From the NCBI GenBank assembly GCA_965261395.1, contig OZ253462.1, positions 1,472,001 to 1,536,000 on the forward strand: 64,000 nt of DNA, written 5' to 3'. The notes beneath the pieces were generated by a model. It worked only from the letters and a program-made list of their open reading frames with translations, was not told the origin of the DNA and ran no database searches. Position 1 is the stretch's first letter. Each line of letters opens with the position of its first letter. Source of the DNA: Candidatus Latescibacterota bacterium. Lineage in GTDB: Bacteria > Latescibacterota > UBA2968 > UBA8231. Positions 15,276 to 48,479 of the stretch are shown in pieces. Both the position numbers and the translations under genes were made by a program.

Positions 15276-15288
15276 GAAAGAAAGACTC

Positions 15289-15486
15289 ATGAAGCCATTC
15301 GAGAAATGCCCAGTATGCAGCGGGGAGTTGGTGAGAAAGGACGTTGAAAAACTTCTCCATGGCGGAAAGCATACTGCCGTGATTAGCGTTTCTGCAGAAG
15401 TATGCCTTCATTGCGGAGAAAGATTGTATTCAGAGGATACAGTCAGACGTTTTGAAGAAATCCGTGTAAAACTAGCCCATGAATAA
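15289..15486 (+). CDS. YgiT/MqsA-type zinc-finger protein (antitoxin-like, no toxin partner)
   Basis: CPVC...CLHCGERLYS pattern. Confidence 0.75.
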   Translation: MKPFEKCPVCSGELVRKDVEKLLHGGKHTAVISVSAEVCLHCGERLYSEDTVRRFEEIRVKLAHE

Positions 15487-16471: not shown

Positions 16472-16585
16472 TTCGTCGCCTGAGATCGTCTGGCCGTAGG
16501 TAAATGCCCGGTTCATTATGGCCTTCGCACTGCCGTATACAGGAAATTTCATAATTATTATTCTCAATATATTACAATAAGTTAT

Positions 16586-17631
16586 ACGTGATGTGTGACT
16601 TTTTTATTCAATGGCGATCCCTCCCCTATCTTATTTGTGCGACCAAACCGATAGGGATCATCTCGGAGGGATCACCATCATGTATAAAGTAGAAGATTTT
16701 GTCATTGCCATCTATTGCTTGATCGAGGACGAATTGTATCCGGCGTTCTGCCAGCAGCATGGCCTTCCTCGTCGGGCGGGTTTCCCCCCGGCGTTAAGCG
16801 ACATCGAATGCCTGACGGTCGAGTGGGTCGGTCCGTATCTGGGCTATACCACCCAAAAACAACTCTACGAGCAGATGCACGACCGCTGGAACACTTGGTT
16901 TCCGGCCCTACGCGACCGAGTCGCCTTCGGACGCCAGTGCGCCAACCTCTGGCAGGTCAAAGCCTGGATGCATCATCACATCGTTGAGCGATTGGGCGGT
17001 TATCAGGCTCCCTGCCAAATCATAGATACGCTCCCGGTGCCGATCTGCCATGCCGCGCGCCGATTTCAACGCCGAATTTTCCGCACCGAGTCCGTCGGCG
17101 CATGTCCGGCACCGACCCTCGGCTATGGTGCGGCCAAAGACGAAGTCTACTTTGGCTTTAAAGGCGGCCTGCGCATCACCGACTATGGCCTGATTGTCCA
17201 CGCGCCGCTGCTGCCGGCCTATGGCCATGACAGCACCTGTCGCGACCCGCTCTTAGCCGGCCTGCAGACCCCCACGCAGGTGCTCGGCGATGCCGCCTTT
17301 TTAGCCTTGGATCGACAACAGGAACTCCAACAGCACCACCTCCACCTGCTGACCCCCCTCAAACGCAATATGCAGCCCACCGAGGCGCGAAAGCCCTTTG
17401 TCGCCCCCGCTTGGGCGCTAAGGCTCCGACGACGTATCGAAACCGTCTATGCCCAATTGGTACAACGCTTCCACGTCCAAACCATCAAAGTCCGCGATGC
17501 GTGGCATTTGCAGAGCCTATGGACCACCAAAATACTCACCCATTCGATCTGCGTATGGCTCAATATACGCCTCAAACGAAAACCGCTGGACTTGGAAGGA
17601 CTCGTCCAATGGTAAAAGTCACACATCACGT
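16586..17631 (+). mobile_element. IS982-family insertion sequence
   Basis: 18-bp perfect terminal IRs acgtgatgtgtgactttt; target duplication AAGTTAT at 16579-16585 and 17632-17638. Confidence 0.92.
16680..17615 (+). CDS. IS982-family DDE transposase
   Basis: IIDTLPVPIC, YFGFKG, LGDAAF and RRRIETVYAQL motifs. Confidence 0.92.
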   Translation: MYKVEDFVIAIYCLIEDELYPAFCQQHGLPRRAGFPPALSDIECLTVEWVGPYLGYTTQKQLYEQMHDRWNTWFPALRDRVAFGRQCANLWQVKAWMHHHIVERLGGYQAPCQIIDTLPVPICHAARRFQRRIFRTESVGACPAPTLGYGAAKDEVYFGFKGGLRITDYGLIVHAPLLPAYGHDSTCRDPLLAGLQTPTQVLGDAAFLALDRQQELQQHHLHLLTPLKRNMQPTEARKPFVAPAWALRLRRRIETVYAQLVQRFHVQTIKVRDAWHLQSLWTTKILTHSICVWLNIRLKRKPLDLEGLVQW

Positions 17632-17706
17632 AAGTTATGTATAATACATCAACCTCGCGGTATTGGTTTGCGACGGTTCACACGAATACGTACCTTCGTC
17701 TTTAGA

Positions 17707-17763
17707 TAAGTAACATATAGTGGCCATTACCCGAACCAGTTATTCGGGTACAAGCAGATATAT
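17707..17763 (+). repeat. attC-like repeat, copy A (core site degenerate, GATATAT)
   Basis: Near-identical to 27057-27113; AAGTAAC ... tacccgaa/ttcgggta hairpin ... caagca. Confidence 0.65.
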
Positions 17764-17907
17764 GAAAGGGAAAAATCTGAATCCTTGTGGAACATCTCCA
17801 GTGTCTCTGTTTGCGATTGGGATACTGTCGGGTGAAGTCACTACCGCACAAGATATGGAGTTCGCAGTTTATGCCTAAGGTTAGCGAAAATCACGGGGAA
17901 GTGTTTG

Positions 17908-18513
17908 ATGGTTGAAAAATTGCCCACTGGGAAGAAACTATCCTTTGAAGAGTACGAACTCTTTTACAAGTCTACTGAAAAGGTCACGGATTGGCGCCAT
18001 GCCGCGAACCGGTGGAATTACTCAATCTGTTTGGCTCTCCTCATCGCCATAGTTGCGCTTGGGAGATGGGGTCTATCTGATCCAAAGCTGTTGGCTATAT
18101 CGATTTTAGCAATGATTATTCTCGCATTAATGGCTATTCTTTTTTGCTCCCTTTGGATTGAGCAGATTGAGGATTTCAAAGCTCTAAATAATGAGAAATT
18201 TTCCGTACTAAACGAAATGGCAGAACATGTCGTGTTTAGTGCTGACATGAATGATCCCCGTATGTCTTACTCGCCCTTCGAGCGAGAATGGGAGCAATTT
18301 AATAGAAAGAAAGAGCATAAGGGTACACAAATCATCGCACTAGAATCGACTAAACTCGAATATTGGGTCCCCAAAGCATTTCGCATCGTTTATGCCTGCA
18401 TTCTTGTATTCGTAACGGTGATTTTTATTATAAATTGGGAAGAGATCCGAAACACGACTCTACAACTCCCCTCTAAGCCACCAGCATCTGTCATCAGTGA
18501 AACTAAAAACTAA
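17908..18513 (+). CDS. Three-TM membrane protein resembling the RipA/'octameric membrane protein' type; putative defence effector
   Basis: FEEYELFYKSTEKVTDWRHAANRW, two TMs, W...I..FK.LN..KF.VLNEM, PFEREW, third TM; family name recalled from pattern, not searched. Confidence 0.6.
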   Translation: MVEKLPTGKKLSFEEYELFYKSTEKVTDWRHAANRWNYSICLALLIAIVALGRWGLSDPKLLAISILAMIILALMAILFCSLWIEQIEDFKALNNEKFSVLNEMAEHVVFSADMNDPRMSYSPFEREWEQFNRKKEHKGTQIIALESTKLEYWVPKAFRIVYACILVFVTVIFIINWEEIRNTTLQLPSKPPASVISETKN

Positions 18514-18902
18514 TGCCATTTCTATATGTAATCATGCCTGTCGGTGGAGATCCCCAAGCTGACAGTAAAAAAGCGATTATCGCTCAAGCTGCCCATGAAT
18601 TAGGAGTAGACGTCATCCTTCCTCAATATTCACTAATCAAACCTACATTCCAGCTTGATTATACGATTGAGGTGATTGAAAAGTGCGACTTCGCCCTCGC
18701 GGACCTATCGTTTGAACGTCCAAGTTGTTACTACGAACTAGGACTCGTCGAGGCTCGGAAAAAAGATGTGGTCATCGTCGCCAAAGTAGGAACCGATATA
18801 CATCAAACATGGGCACGTAACCGAGTACATGAGTACAAAACAGCTACTGACTATCCAACTGTCACGAGGTCTGCCTTAAAGAGCTTACTTGCTGGCCGCT
18901 AA
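18513..18902 (+). CDS. Nucleoside 2-deoxyribosyltransferase-like (N-glycosidase fold) protein
   Basis: YVIMP N-terminal strand; IEKCDFALADLSFERPSCYYELG with catalytic-type Glu; start overlaps upstream stop (TAATG). Confidence 0.75.
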   Translation: MPFLYVIMPVGGDPQADSKKAIIAQAAHELGVDVILPQYSLIKPTFQLDYTIEVIEKCDFALADLSFERPSCYYELGLVEARKKDVVIVAKVGTDIHQTWARNRVHEYKTATDYPTVTRSALKSLLAGR

Positions 18903-18933
18903 TGGGCTTATAATGAACTAGGAAAGGACTTGT

Positions 18934-19521
18934 ATGGGACGAAAGTGTTTTATCTCCTTCAAGACAGAAGACATCGCGTTCAAACTACACATACAGAATG
19001 AACTCAACATAGATATGATAGATAAGTCACTGGATGAAGCTATCGAGTCTGAAGATGAGGACTACGTTCTCCGTCGAATTCGAGAAGACTACCTCTCGGA
19101 CTCGACTGTCACCCTGCACTTGATCGGTTTGGCAAGTGCTGAAAACCGAGGCTCCTTTGAGCAGGCATATATAAAACGAGAGTTACAAGCCTCTCTATAC
19201 AATGGACCAGGGAATACACGTAACGGAATTCTCGGAATTGTCTTACCGTTTATGGACACGTCAGTATATAGAGGGAAGTACAATTGCTATATGTGCGGCG
19301 GAGAACACAACCATATCGCCTTGAACGAGAGTACTGTGATCAGAGAATTCAGCTATAACTACTACATCCCTAATGATCGCTGCTACCATATAGAAAGTGA
19401 TCGATACTGCGTGTTGTGTAGATGGACTGATTTCTGTAGTGCCCCAGAAGCTTGGATCGAATCAGCATTCGCTAAGCGTTCTGAACCTATAGCGGACAGA
19501 ACTAGGGTTTATGTTGATTGA
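18934..19521 (+). CDS. ThsB-like TIR-domain protein (DUF1863/MTH538-type)
   Basis: RKCFISFK, IREDYLSDSTVTLHLIG, YIKRELQASL (catalytic-type Glu), RNGILGIVLP. Confidence 0.85.
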   Translation: MGRKCFISFKTEDIAFKLHIQNELNIDMIDKSLDEAIESEDEDYVLRRIREDYLSDSTVTLHLIGLASAENRGSFEQAYIKRELQASLYNGPGNTRNGILGIVLPFMDTSVYRGKYNCYMCGGEHNHIALNESTVIREFSYNYYIPNDRCYHIESDRYCVLCRWTDFCSAPEAWIESAFAKRSEPIADRTRVYVD

Positions 19522-19780
19522 TATAGGAGGAAAGATTTTTATATATCACATCCGTTTACGCTGAGCGCCATACGGCGTTTGGGGCTGCTCCCACTCCTCA
19601 TGCGTGGGGTCGTGAATGGTGAAAGCGACGTTATGCAAAACTGGCGCAGGGGCAGCCCCTAGATCCCACCCCGAAGAATCGCACACAAGAAACAACCTAT
19701 CCGAACGCTCAGAATACCGCTGGGGTATATTCCCTTGGGGTCAACGGTAGATCGAGCAAACAGAGAACGGGAGGAAATCC

Positions 19781-21538
19781 GTGTACGACGAGATTGATAG
19801 AGAAATCCAGCAGGAATACTACCACCAGAACTTTTCCAATGATGGACAACGGTTCGTAGCGTGGTATCTAAGGAACGTGCACCTTAGAGACATGAATGAG
19901 ACCAAGGACGACGTCACCGATGGACCAGACGACAAGCAGATTGACGCGATCGTGATCGATGACGAGAAATCCATCATCTTTATCGTACAGGGGAAATTCT
20001 ATAGTGGCGAGTCAGTCGATGCTGAACCTCTCCGTGAGGTACTCAGTGCCTGGATACAGATTCACGATCTGGTACGTCTCCAGGAGGTAGGAAACACCAA
20101 GCTGAAGCGGAAACTGTCTGAGGTGGCCCAAGCGCTTGAGGATGACTATGAGGTGGAGTTTGAGTTGATCACTACTTCTGGTCTTACACCCACAGCCAAC
20201 GACGATCTGGCTACCTTTCAGCGTCAATTGGCTGAGTTGTCGGAGAGTAAGGACTTGGTGTGCTCAATCAGTGTAATTGACCGAGATGAGTTACGCCGAA
20301 GGTACGATCTCGCTCTTGAGCGTGACAATCCGTCAATAGAACATACTGTCGATATGTCCTCCTGTTCCCATATGGAGATGACGTTAGATGGGACCAAAGC
20401 TGTCATAGCTGCCATTCCGTTGAGTGAGTGCATCAAGTTTCCTGGAATAAGGGATGGCACGCTGTTCCAGAAGAATGTGAGGCAAAGCTTGGGACTGAGC
20501 AATCGGGTCAATAAGGGGATCAAGAACACTATATACAGCGACCGCCATATGGATTTTTTCTTCTTTCATAATGGCATCACCGCAATCTGTAACCGGATGT
20601 CTATGGAGGAGAGCCAGCTCAAGCTCACTGGACTCAGTGTTGTCAATGGGTGTCAGTCACTCAATACGATCTTGAGCTGCAGCGAACGCGTCAAACAGCT
20701 GGCAGACACCTGCGTTTTGTTTCGTTTCTACGAGATTCCGCAAAGGGAGCGCGGCGACCGTATTAGCATTAATACAAACTCTCAGAGTTCGGTAAAGCCG
20801 CGCGATCTACGCAGCAATGATAGGCGCGTCCTTAACCTCAAAAGACGGTTTGAACAGAAGTTTTCTAATGGCTGTTTCCTAACTAAGCGAGGAGAGGTAG
20901 CGACCCCCTCGTGTGATAAGGACTACGTGCTAGACTTGTCTGATCTGGGCAAGTACCTCATCGCTTGGCATTCGCAAAGGCCCAATATTTCTTACAGCGA
21001 GACGCGCATATTCGACAAATACTTCGAGCAGCTGTTCAGACGAGACTACTCTCCAGAAAGCGCCCAAGCCCTCCACCACTGGATGAGGCACGTAAGGGAT
21101 CGTTGGACGAAGGATAACCCCTTGGGGCTGAACGAGTCACTATTGGCCATGCGCGCTTACGCTCCCTACCATCACCTATATTCTGTTTCTCTTTGCTTCT
21201 GCGTGGCAAACAACAGATCAGAAGGTGTACCAGTTCCCCAAGTGACCTATGAGAGGGTGTCTGATCATGACCTTGTCGATCAGGTCGTTGACATCGCTGG
21301 AAGTTGTCTGAACAGCGCCCTAGAAGCTGCAGCGGCTGAGCCGCTTCCCCCAAATCGTGTCTTTAGCCCCCAAAACTGGGTGAAAACCAAGAGTTGTCTG
21401 GCCGGGATTAGGGCTGCGATGCGGCAGTACTTTAACATGCTTCCTACCATGCCGATGGGAAGGGAAACGAGCCAGAAGCTCAAGGCTGGCCTCGCCATGA
21501 CCGAAGATCAGTTTGAGGCGAGATGGGCAGCAGATTGA
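19781..21538 (+). CDS. AIPR-family (abortive infection phage resistance) protein
   Basis: DGPDDKQIDA and IVQGKF nuclease-like N-terminus; LFQKNVRQSLG, FFFFHNGIT, VVNGCQS and NTNSQ AIPR motifs. Confidence 0.9.
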   Translation: MYDEIDREIQQEYYHQNFSNDGQRFVAWYLRNVHLRDMNETKDDVTDGPDDKQIDAIVIDDEKSIIFIVQGKFYSGESVDAEPLREVLSAWIQIHDLVRLQEVGNTKLKRKLSEVAQALEDDYEVEFELITTSGLTPTANDDLATFQRQLAELSESKDLVCSISVIDRDELRRRYDLALERDNPSIEHTVDMSSCSHMEMTLDGTKAVIAAIPLSECIKFPGIRDGTLFQKNVRQSLGLSNRVNKGIKNTIYSDRHMDFFFFHNGITAICNRMSMEESQLKLTGLSVVNGCQSLNTILSCSERVKQLADTCVLFRFYEIPQRERGDRISINTNSQSSVKPRDLRSNDRRVLNLKRRFEQKFSNGCFLTKRGEVATPSCDKDYVLDLSDLGKYLIAWHSQRPNISYSETRIFDKYFEQLFRRDYSPESAQALHHWMRHVRDRWTKDNPLGLNESLLAMRAYAPYHHLYSVSLCFCVANNRSEGVPVPQVTYERVSDHDLVDQVVDIAGSCLNSALEAAAAEPLPPNRVFSPQNWVKTKSCLAGIRAAMRQYFNMLPTMPMGRETSQKLKAGLAMTEDQFEARWAAD

Positions 21539-21594
21539 CTGGGTTCGGACAAACCATCCTCGAACTGTATCCCCCTCTGCCCATTAGGGCCGGG

Positions 21595-21657
21595 CATTAT
21601 GGCCTTCGCACCGCCGTACATTACTCGAACCAATTGTTTGGGCACAAGCAGTTATGT
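21595..21657 (+). repeat. attC-like repeat, copy B, ending in GTTATGT
   Basis: attactcgaaccaattgtttgggcacaagcaGTTATGT matches the copy at 27057; first 24 nt match 16514-16537 (23 of 24). Confidence 0.65.
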
Positions 21658-21708
21658 GCCATGCGACCCTCAAGAACGCCTACAGCAAAGCAGACAGAGT
21701 AAGACACC

Positions 21709-25652: not shown

Positions 25653-27059
25653 ATGAACCGAGAAGACTACTTTCGCTGGGCTGAGCGAGCTGCCCGGTGG
25701 GGTGCCGAGTACCTGGCCACGCTCGATGAGCGGCCCGTTCGGGCGCAGACCGCACCGGGTGAGATCGCGGCGCTGCTGCCTTTAGCTCCACCGGAAGAGC
25801 CGGTAGATATGGAGACGATCTTCGCCGACTTTGAGCGCATCGTACCCGACGGCATGACGCACTGGCAACACCGGCGTTTCTTTGCATACTTCAGCGCCAA
25901 CGCCGCGCCGGTTTCGATGATCGCCGAAAATTTGACGGCGGTCATGGCGGCCCAGTGCATGCTCTGGCAGACCTCACCTGCAGCTACGGAGATTGAGACC
26001 CGGATGGTCGATTGGATGCGCCAGGCCCTTGGGCTGCCGGAAGGATTCCAAGGGGTTATCCAAGATTCGGGAACGTCGGCAAATGTCTGCGCCGTACTAA
26101 CGATGCGCGAGCGAGCGCTAGACTGGCGCGGGATCAATTCTGGCATGGTGGGGGAGCAACAGGTCCGGGTCTACGCCTCACCGGAGACCCACTCGTCGGT
26201 TGACAAGGCGATCCGCATCGCCGGTATCGGCCAACAGCATCTCGTCAAAGTCCCGACCGATGGTTCCTGGGCACTCGATTCGGAGATGCTCCGCCGGGCG
26301 ATTGACGCTGATCACGCGGCGGGTTTCCTCCCGGCCGGTGTCGTCCTTTGCGTTGGGGGTACGTCGATCGGCGCGTCCGACCGCGTGCACCAGACCATCG
26401 AAGTGGCACGAGAGCACGATCTCTACGTCCACATCGACGCCGCGTGGGCTGGTTCCGCGATGATCTGTCCTGAGCTACGGGAGTTGTGGGAGGGCGTCGA
26501 GGGAGCCGACAGCATCGCCTTCAATCCCCACAAGTGGCTCGGTGCGCAGTTCGACTGCTCAATCCAGTTTCTTGCGGACCCGGAACCGCAGGTTCGCACC
26601 CTCGGCGTCCGTCCGGATTACCTCCAAACCCTCGGCCAAACCGAGATCACCAATTACAGTGAGTGGACGATCCCCTTGGGGCGTCGGTTCCGCGCTCTCA
26701 AGCTCTGGTTCCTGCTACGCGCGCACGGTCTCGAAGACCTCCGCCAGCGCATCCGGAACCATATTGCCTGGGCTGAGGAGGCCGCCGCGGCGATCGCATT
26801 GCTGGATGGCTTTCGCCTGACGACGGACTGCCACCTTTCGCTCTTCACGTTCCAGTATGCCCCCGACGGCGAGAATGCCAACGACGCCACCGAGCGCCTG
26901 CTCCGCGCGGTCAACGATGACGGCCGGATCTACCTGACGCAGACAATCCACGAGGGCCAGTTCGTCATCCGCTTCCAGGTCGGGCAGTTCGACTGTAGAA
27001 GGGAGGATGTGCTCCTGGCGGTCGATGTGCTGCGGGAACTAGCCCACGCGATCCATTAA
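25653..27059 (+). CDS. PLP-dependent aromatic L-amino acid decarboxylase family protein
   Basis: MTHWQH, SPAATE, HIDAAWAG, FNPHKWL (PLP lysine) and LGRRFRALKLW motifs. Confidence 0.93.
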   Translation: MNREDYFRWAERAARWGAEYLATLDERPVRAQTAPGEIAALLPLAPPEEPVDMETIFADFERIVPDGMTHWQHRRFFAYFSANAAPVSMIAENLTAVMAAQCMLWQTSPAATEIETRMVDWMRQALGLPEGFQGVIQDSGTSANVCAVLTMRERALDWRGINSGMVGEQQVRVYASPETHSSVDKAIRIAGIGQQHLVKVPTDGSWALDSEMLRRAIDADHAAGFLPAGVVLCVGGTSIGASDRVHQTIEVAREHDLYVHIDAAWAGSAMICPELRELWEGVEGADSIAFNPHKWLGAQFDCSIQFLADPEPQVRTLGVRPDYLQTLGQTEITNYSEWTIPLGRRFRALKLWFLLRAHGLEDLRQRIRNHIAWAEEAAAAIALLDGFRLTTDCHLSLFTFQYAPDGENANDATERLLRAVNDDGRIYLTQTIHEGQFVIRFQVGQFDCRREDVLLAVDVLRELAHAIH

Positions 27060-27113
27060 GTAACATATAGTGGCCATTACCCGAACCAATTGTTCGGGTA
27101 CAAGCAGTTAGAT
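27057..27113 (+). repeat. attC-like repeat, copy C (AAGTAAC ... GTTAGAT)
   Basis: Starts at the stop codon of the upstream gene; internal hairpin; canonical GTTRRRY core site. Confidence 0.7.
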
Positions 27114-27124
27114 GACATGAGCAA

Positions 27125-27631
27125 ATGCCTGGTATGAAAAGCCATCATCGACATCGATTTCATGGCGATCCAAAACGTTTTGATGTGCTTGCATCATATA
27201 TCGACGTGCGCTTTGGAAATACGGTCCACTATCTCGCTGATGTTGCTGGCGGGCAAGGCATGTTAACTCGGATTCTACGTAAGAGGTACAATTACGATTG
27301 CGAGGTTGTCGATCCTCGCGCCCGGACTCTCAAAGGCGTGCCAAACCGAGCCGTGGAATTCGATTCCTCGATGACTGACTACTATGACTTGATTATTGGG
27401 TTGCATGCCGACGAAGCCACTCGTCCTGTAGCCCAAGCGGCTCTTAGTCGACCGGTAATCCTCGTACCTTGTTGCAATTTTTGGTCCGAGGAGAAGCTGG
27501 GACGGGACGAATTACTCGATGCTATCGAAGATTACTACCGTTGTCATAAGGTGTCCTTTGAACGAGTCGAATTCCCGTTCAAGGGGCCCAAGAATATTGG
27601 TATTGTATCAGAGCCGCCCAAGAAATCGTAA
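27125..27631 (+). CDS. Hypothetical protein with SAM-methyltransferase-like motifs (cassette gene)
   Basis: ADVAGGQG, GLHADEAT and VPCC motifs; bounded by complementary GTTAGATGAC/GTCATCTAAC. Confidence 0.65.
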   Translation: MPGMKSHHRHRFHGDPKRFDVLASYIDVRFGNTVHYLADVAGGQGMLTRILRKRYNYDCEVVDPRARTLKGVPNRAVEFDSSMTDYYDLIIGLHADEATRPVAQAALSRPVILVPCCNFWSEEKLGRDELLDAIEDYYRCHKVSFERVEFPFKGPKNIGIVSEPPKKS

Positions 27632-48426: not shown

Positions 48427-48464
48427 AGTTAACTGCTTATATCCGAATAATTAATTCGGATAAC
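48427..48464 (-). repeat. attC-like repeat, copy D (minus strand)
   Basis: cgttatccgaattaattattcggatataagcaGTTAACT: same hairpin + aagca + GTTRRRY layout as copies A-C, oriented with the minus-strand genes. Confidence 0.6.
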
Positions 48465-48479
48465 GAGTAGAGAAATCTG

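Follow-up and report, generated by a model that had tools for sequence, protein, structure and literature searches.

Thoeris is the bacterial counterpart of plant and animal TIR immune signalling. As set out in excerpts of the preprint by Yirmiya et al. (bioRxiv 10.64898/2025.12.03.692087), type VII combines a TIR protein with a SLATT protein (ThsH), type VIII combines a TIR protein with a "CMP (cytidine monophosphate) hydrolase" plus TPR protein (ThsI), canonical cyclic ADP-ribose (cADPR) drives both types, and rare operons hold both effectors. Here we describe a trio of genes, spanning 1.6 kb, from a Candidatus Latescibacterota bacterium (GenBank assembly GCA_965261395.1, contig OZ253462.1, positions 1,472,001 to 1,536,000; this whole stretch of 64,000 nucleotides is the window hereafter). 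The genes encode a small membrane protein of the octameric membrane protein family (8xMP), a small protein resembling nucleoside 2'-deoxyribosyltransferases (NDT) and a ThsB-type TIR protein. On balance we lean towards reading the trio as a Thoeris-like module, in which the 8xMP protein would be the membrane effector and the NDT-like and TIR proteins would be enzymes of a nucleotide signal. The TIR side and the membrane family were already catalogued, while the pairing of 8xMP with the NDT-like protein, and the union of this pair with a ThsB of the type VII/VIII kind, appear to be new.

The three genes corresponded in their open reading frames (ORFs) to the tightly packed, AT-rich genes of the original prediction. 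The stop codon of the 8xMP gene overlapped the start codon of the NDT-like gene in the sequence TAATG, 32 nt separated the NDT-like gene from the TIR gene, and no terminator-like site was found between the trio genes on the + strand. The GC content of the 8xMP, NDT-like and TIR genes was 41.7, 45.4 and 43.9%, respectively, compared with a genome value of 59.3% and 50.3% in the AIPR gene that follows. The operon held no gene for SIR2, SLOG, Macro or caspase, as already remarked in the original prediction, and likewise none for a SLATT or TPR-S effector. Compared with Thoeris in general, no known effector domain was present in the operon, and the nearby 8xMP protein came from a family that is frequently found beside TIRs in this phylum (see below).

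We surveyed the surroundings of the 8xMP gene in one genome per species, which gave 39 loci with an 8xMP relative from at least ten phyla. The NDT-like gene was directly downstream of 8xMP in 37 out of the 39 loci (phmmer E 2e-16 to 3e-30), in many cases with the stop codon of 8xMP running into the start codon of its neighbour, and the contigs of the other two loci ended just past the 8xMP gene. The conserved unit is therefore the pair of 8xMP and NDT-like genes, not the trio: the gene neighbourhood, whose conservation had been proposed as a check for all three genes, was kept for the pair, whereas a TIR gene was near it in only 5 of the 39 loci. For each locus, Pfam and PADLOC were applied to one upstream and two downstream ORFs. 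TIR genes were found near the pair in the loci L001, L011 (two genes), L028 and L039, and a ThsB_TIR gene was found in L035, four genes further down on the same strand. All the cluster genes were on one strand in L001, L011, L035 and L039. The loci L001, L011, L028 and L039 also carried a protein with SLATT_3 and SLATT_1, and in L001 and L011 the pair sat between the SLATT and TIR genes. In a tree of the pair, TIR adjacency was scattered, with 5 changes of which at least 4 were forced (scored for the window, L001, L011, L028 and L039, with L035 left out); therefore, the association was gained or lost several times.

Two of these clusters had further genes of note. In Terracoccus (L035, 5599-9875), the pair was followed on the same strand by a 5-hydroxymethyldeoxyuridine (5-hmdU) DNA kinase-like gene, a MazG-C gene, a gene for a 260-aa protein and the ThsB_TIR gene, making a six-gene cluster in which genes of nucleotide modification are combined with a TIR gene. 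In L001 (6226-8387), a gene for a 484-aa TIR–TGT/DpdA-like fusion and then an Ogg-HhH glycosylase-like gene came directly after the 8xMP and NDT-like pair and the SLATT gene.

The 8xMP family was also examined across the phylum, where Pfam PF24838 was matched in 27 out of 168 genomes. A small ThsB_TIR or TIR_2 gene was directly beside 8xMP in 16 of the 19 distinct phylum loci other than that of the window, a count that is not to be read as a statistic since the genomes are kin. Two TIRs surrounded one 8xMP gene in three of the loci (L135, the same as L150; L136, the same as L142; and L139), and no TIR was beside 8xMP in L144, L146 (broken) and L147. These two-gene modules resemble the pair of the window in the membrane family, in the overlapping or abutting genes and in having as partner a small Glu-dependent protein of Rossmann-like N-glycosidase fold. 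They differ in that their TIR gene is upstream and no NDT-like gene is present, whereas the fixed partner in the window is the NDT-like gene, located downstream. The 8xMP protein of the window also belonged to a divergent subfamily, with 25-30% identity to those of the modules and a PF24838 score of 66.8 bits vs 108-139 bits (exceptions are L155 with 53 bits and the second copy of this genome with 47 bits). This second, divergent 8xMP gene in the same genome encoded 165 aa, overlapped the end of a gene for a 158-aa TIR_2-like protein (C1:6409940-6410892; L124, 980-1932) and adjoined a DDE_3 transposase fragment; the two genes make a separate candidate two-gene TIR and membrane module. In another locus (L138, 982-1917), an 8xMP protein had an N-terminal extension of ~170 aa without Pfam match, and a TIR_2 gene followed.

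The 8xMP protein of the window matched PF24838 with E 2.2e-18 (66.8 bits vs a curated cut-off of 30) over profile positions 1-135 of 136. The three transmembrane segments expected for it were borne out by three hydrophobic segments (residues 39-57, 61-79 and 157-175), and its AlphaFold2 (AF2) monomer model consisted of long helices, with a predicted local distance difference test (pLDDT) of 78. We retrieved 107 homologues; an alignment with 24 of them (36-83% identity) had 35 invariant columns, mostly in the predicted cytosolic parts and including several Arg, Lys, Asn, Trp and Tyr. A relation to SLATT proteins was rejected (hhalign probability 7%). Searches of PDB sequences with the three trio proteins and the 8xMP profile gave no significant match, and our literature search on 8xMP and PF24838 returned nothing relevant and no paper on a RipA octamer structure. 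The name "RipA family octameric membrane protein" is the name of a database cluster of 8xMP relatives, reached through the homologue P0062, so that Francisella RipA is placed in the same Pfam family by database cluster names. Excerpts of two papers treat Francisella RipA in the context of LpxA and of intracellular growth, and not of TIR or NDT partners (PMC12444477; PMC4322802).

The original prediction had proposed the small membrane protein as a pore effector. The protein is not without relatives, since it belongs to a catalogued Pfam family. A role as signal-gated membrane effector appears reasonable, because the 8xMP family adjoins small ThsB-type TIRs in most of the other loci of the phylum.

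The second gene encodes a protein for which an NDT fold had been proposed, and the structural comparison agreed: the best Foldseek matches of its AF2 model (pLDDT 93.9), all with probability 1.0, were nucleoside 2'-deoxyribosyltransferases, DNPH1, the CMP N-glycosidases MilB and BcmB, and TIR domains. The motif ADLS.ERPSCYYELG was near-fixed in 28 family members as A-D-L-S-x-E-R-P-S-C-Y-Y-E-L-G, with a later H-Q, and the invariant residues in these 28 sequences were D64, P70-S71-C72-Y73, E75, G77 and H97-Q98. E75, the second Glu of the motif, coincides with what we take to be the position of the NDT nucleophile. The protein scored 21.1 bits to PF05014, under the curated cut-off of 28.8, and so is a member of the superfamily and not, by score, of PF05014. 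It shares with NDT, DNPH1, MilB and BcmB the fold and a catalytic Glu in the same motif, and differs from them in this score, in its own invariant S-C-Y and H-Q and in being always coupled to a membrane protein. Comparison of the NDT-like family with the N-terminal domain of ThsI-like proteins gave an hhalign probability of 90.5% (E 1.4e-6) and a common motif AD....P...YELG; judged by these profiles, the NDT-like protein and the enzyme domain found in the type VIII effector are remote homologues.

In an exhaustive profile search, the NDT-like family had 846 representatives at E<=1e-10, almost all of them standalone proteins of ~130 aa. One representative (P0373) had the NDT-like domain fused to a NUDIX hydrolase, and in Alloyangia pacifica a NUDIX gene came directly after the pair (L005, 5987-6565). 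The NDT catalytic motif with its Glu, taken with the NUDIX fusion, points to a putative nucleotide or ADP-ribose-type substrate, and the fusion and the NUDIX neighbour hint that an ADP-ribose-type nucleotide may be the substrate or product. Among the best 150 of 6973 hits, no protein with fused 8xMP and NDT-like parts was found; the few long hits comprised the NUDIX fusion, one tandem duplication and a further two proteins in which no second Pfam domain accounts for the added length. Viral contigs scanned with the NDT-like profile returned no locus. Elsewhere in the same genome, an ORF of 235 aa (C1:2650921-2651628, - strand) weakly matched two profiles, NDT-like (E 3e-6) and ThsI-like (E 4e-8), and may be another member of the same enzyme superfamily.

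The TIR protein matched the PADLOC model ThsB1 (PDLC00428, E 1.7e-10), while the protein itself had no Pfam match at E<=1. It had 2930 homologues, many of them ~65% identical across distant phyla, and these carried PF08937. E83, the Glu of the KRELQAS motif, was invariant in 18 aligned homologues, as were C118, C121, C150 and C159. The ThsB-type assignment with its catalytic Glu was thus upheld, the suggested metal-binding Cys insert gained support, and the residues would fit an active enzyme with a zinc-ribbon-like insert.

We then considered the neighbours of this TIR subfamily in 80 metagenome loci, with TIRs 58-68% identical to that of the window. The direct neighbour was a SLATT/DUF4231 protein in 38 loci and a TPR-S protein of ~405 aa in 17 loci (together 55 of 80). 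Extra small ThsB TIRs were present in 11 of the 80 loci, and most of the remaining loci were short contigs. The TIR and TPR arrangement also occurred on Lactobacillaceae plasmids. Because the neighbours of the subfamily are SLATT or CMP-hydrolase-TPR-S proteins, the TIR of the window is, by neighbourhood, a ThsB of the type VII/VIII kind as these types appear in excerpts of the preprint (10.64898/2025.12.03.692087).

The trio resembles type VII in the subfamily of its TIR, in having a small multi-pass membrane protein as presumed effector, and in the four loci that hold the 8xMP and NDT-like pair in one cluster with TIR and SLATT. It differs in that neither the window nor the genome has a SLATT effector (ThsH), in that 8xMP is not detectably related to SLATT, and in the extra NDT-fold enzyme. 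With type VIII it shares the TIR subfamily and the distant homology of the NDT-like protein to the N-terminal enzyme domain; no ThsI was found, the protein of the window being 129 aa long, without TPR-S and coupled to a membrane protein, and most of its relatives being without any TIR. The claim that the system is undescribed therefore held in part: the TIR side belongs to the described Thoeris VII/VIII subfamily, whereas the configuration of 8xMP and NDT-like genes, with or without TIR, was not found in PADLOC 2.0 or in our literature searches, the 29 putative types of the preprint (Fig. 1C, Table S1) being outside this comparison.

We also searched for other partners of the TIR. The genome had no match to the SLATT families PF14015 and PF18184, the TIR of the window was the sole representative of its subfamily there, and tblastn of the window with six SLATT proteins and an unassigned 300-aa neighbour protein (L003) found nothing below E 0.1. 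Since the genome is without SLATT and without another member of the TIR subfamily, the only candidate effector adjoining the intact TIR is 8xMP, together with the NDT-like protein. The five close relatives of 8xMP were 78.7-96.5% identical to it, and for every one of them a protein of the window's TIR cluster (90.4-93.8% identity) was recorded on a contig of exactly the same length as that of the relative, one of these contigs having only 3124 nt. Contigs with the intact trio genes came from four public runs, each of a different study, and one compensated pair of indels keeps the TIR in frame.

The trio lies in a mobile setting, whose features are listed in Table 1. The gene directly after the trio was an AIPR gene, as originally read, with matches to both the Pfam AIPR and the PADLOC AbiU models; its product also had a weak N-terminal match to an Mrr-type nuclease. 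No AIPR homologue was beside the pair in the 39 loci or beside the TIR in the 80 loci, and a functional pair of TIR and AIPR was therefore rejected. Given the AbiU match and the missing link to either family elsewhere, we treated it as a probable abortive-infection system of its own, made of one gene and carried on the mobile segment together with the trio. One public-run contig joined position 16519 to 21588, so that the four genes were absent there, and another joined 21619 back to 17658, a joint that points to a circle or a tandem copy. Since contigs show both deletion and back-joining, the trio and the AIPR gene move as one segment of ~4 kb.

The sites described as attC-like turned out to be repeated elements that do flank the segment and of which the genome has only about eight copies. 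Their identity as attC was not confirmed: no integron integrase or tyrosine recombinase was found within 2 Mb, and there was no Rfam match in 14-30 kb, where no dedicated attC model was run. The insertion sequence (IS) upstream of the trio was polymorphic, as a contig of the run X6, from another study, joined 16577 to 17631 without it. In this IS-free population the flanks are joined directly, so the IS did not displace an effector gene; a SLATT remnant displaced by the IS was rejected on this ground and on the tblastn result. A promoter-like site across the right end of the IS could drive the operon. Further away, GNAT, HAD and GNAT genes were located at 21.7-24.7 kb, beyond the trio segment, and a small ORF at 15286-15486, just upstream of a PhyH-like gene, weakly matched an MqsA-antitoxin-like zinc ribbon (E 1e-5, under the cut-off).

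Table 1. Coordinates of the trio and of the surrounding features in the window.
Feature	Position	Strand	Description
8xMP gene	17908-18513	+	201 aa counted from ATG; TTG one codon upstream
NDT-like gene	18513-18902	+	129 aa; translationally coupled to the 8xMP gene
ThsB-type TIR gene	18934-19521	+	195 aa
AIPR/AbiU-like gene	19781-21538	+	PF10592 E 6e-33, 115 bits vs cut-off 25; PADLOC AbiU E 4.8e-34
Mobile segment	17658-21619	.	four genes, ~3.96 kb; bounded by repeated elements
Repeat copies	16514-16537, 21595-21618		bracket the segment
Repeat copies	17725-17757, 21619-21651, 27075-27107		
Repeated element with internal palindrome	16514-16537, 17707-17776, 21595-21663, 27057-27126, 48433-48465 (-)		brackets multi-gene segments
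IS element	16585-17632	+	Pfam DDE_Tnp_1_3, DDE_Tnp_1; 19-nt perfect terminal inverted repeats
Promoter-like site	17618-17645		spans the right end of the IS

In the module that we propose, whose signal, signal maker and binder, pore formation and defence function we infer from family memberships, conserved residues and gene linkage, the 8xMP protein, with three transmembrane helices and presumably oligomeric, would be the effector, and a nucleotide-derived signal would bind to its strongly conserved cytosolic side. Once loaded with the signal, the oligomer would breach or depolarise the membrane, so that the infection is aborted. The NDT-like and TIR proteins would act as Glu-dependent N-glycosidase-fold enzymes that make or convert the signal. 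The NDT-like protein would be the built-in, translationally coupled partner, in place of the small ThsB TIR of most other 8xMP gene pairs, and the ThsB TIR, from the clade that makes canonical cADPR in types VII and VIII, would be an added phage sensor and signal synthase. Such an added ThsB would parallel the Thoeris loci that have several thsB genes per effector.

Several observations weigh against a single system made of the three proteins. No TIR was present in the ORFs examined at 34 of the 39 pair loci, many of which lay amid housekeeping or metabolic genes, and a search of five pair-holding genomes with PF08937 gave no match in four of them and, in the fifth, a single match that was the TIR of the pair's own locus; the pair thus works without ThsB in most hosts. 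Seen from the TIR, neither 8xMP nor a close NDT-like gene was beside any of the 80 homologues. Of the five pair loci with a linked TIR, four also encode a SLATT protein, which could be the true effector of the TIR, with the pair as a mere neighbour in a defence island, and in one related contig the TIR product had only 157 aa while the 8xMP protein was full length. The locus counts from both sides, the SLATT proteins and the short TIR product, and the presence of an unrelated AbiU-like gene and an IS in the region, favour two independent systems lying side by side, namely a self-contained module of 8xMP and NDT-like proteins and an orphan or degenerating ThsB bereft of its SLATT or ThsI effector, their adjacency being that of a defence island or cassette. 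We regard this explanation as unlikely, though it deserves serious attention, given that the TIR of the window is intact with all its invariant residues and stays in frame across several populations, and that its linkage to 8xMP persists in five related contigs. The short gap to the NDT-like gene, the lack of a + strand terminator-like site and the similar GC content within the trio also speak for a joint unit, as do the habitual partnership of 8xMP with TIRs elsewhere and the position of the pair between SLATT and TIR in L001 and L011.

The three proteins may also act together with reversed or mixed roles, where the NDT-like protein would be the effector, through depletion of a nucleotide pool like that suggested for the CMP-hydrolase domain of ThsI, or the off-switch, through cleavage of the N-glycosidic bond of a cyclic signal; 8xMP would be a membrane anchor, sensor or regulator, and the TIR the sole maker of the signal. 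The kinship of the NDT-like protein with the presumed effector domain of ThsI would fit an effector, or an enzyme that degrades the signal, no less than an enzyme that makes it, and in this respect it too counts against our assignment. The CMP N-glycosidases MilB and BcmB and DNPH1 among the structural matches, the NUDIX fusion and neighbour, suggestive of the breakdown of an ADP-ribose-type molecule, and the overlapping genes, suggestive of a stoichiometric complex, are consistent with it. We nevertheless hold reversed roles to be quite improbable, as a TIR that could supply the signal is missing near most pairs, and other 8xMP subfamilies have a ThsB-type TIR as partner and at times two of them for one 8xMP, a pattern that looks like several sensors for one effector. 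In addition, the excerpts of the preprint (10.64898/2025.12.03.692087) present it only as a hypothesis that the enzyme domain of ThsI acts as effector.

Very improbable in our judgement is a pair without any defence role, acting as a housekeeping or stress module in membrane nucleotide salvage or RipA-like envelope homeostasis, with TIR and AIPR as unrelated cargo. Many pair loci do lie amid metabolic genes (formate dehydrogenase, urocanase, MreB, PspA), the pair follows taxonomy within Actinomycetota in the tree, and RipA is linked to LpxA in the excerpts on Francisella (PMC12444477; PMC4322802). Against this, we found no close homologue of the pair in the 24 other species of the genus searched, and the segment is mobile, low in GC and polymorphic in presence and absence. 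Moreover, the pair recurs beside TIR and SLATT genes and, at a few loci, beside caspase-like, Gabija-like or prokaryotic Argonaute (pAgo)-associated genes, and the wider 8xMP family is tied to TIRs.

Returning to the Thoeris-like module, the membrane family pairs with TIRs or, in a subfamily spread over at least ten phyla, with an NDT-fold enzyme whose catalytic Glu is kept. This suggests that a different enzyme serves a signalling branch in parallel, or that cADPR-type signals are processed in a new way. To our knowledge, each new Thoeris effector or signal so far has brought new chemistry. A bolder proposal, which we offer tentatively and consider doubtful, is that NDT-fold enzymes may form a second, TIR-independent class of immune signal synthases, which would sense infection, make a messenger by glycosyl transfer and gate a RipA/8xMP pore; the window would then show such a module wired to a cADPR-type ThsB. 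If this were true, the RipA family would gain a general function as nucleotide-gated membrane effectors. RipA is important for the intracellular growth of Francisella and, as far as we know, its mechanism is not known. The trio is small and easily tested, and the proposed module offers a testable function for the RipA/8xMP family.

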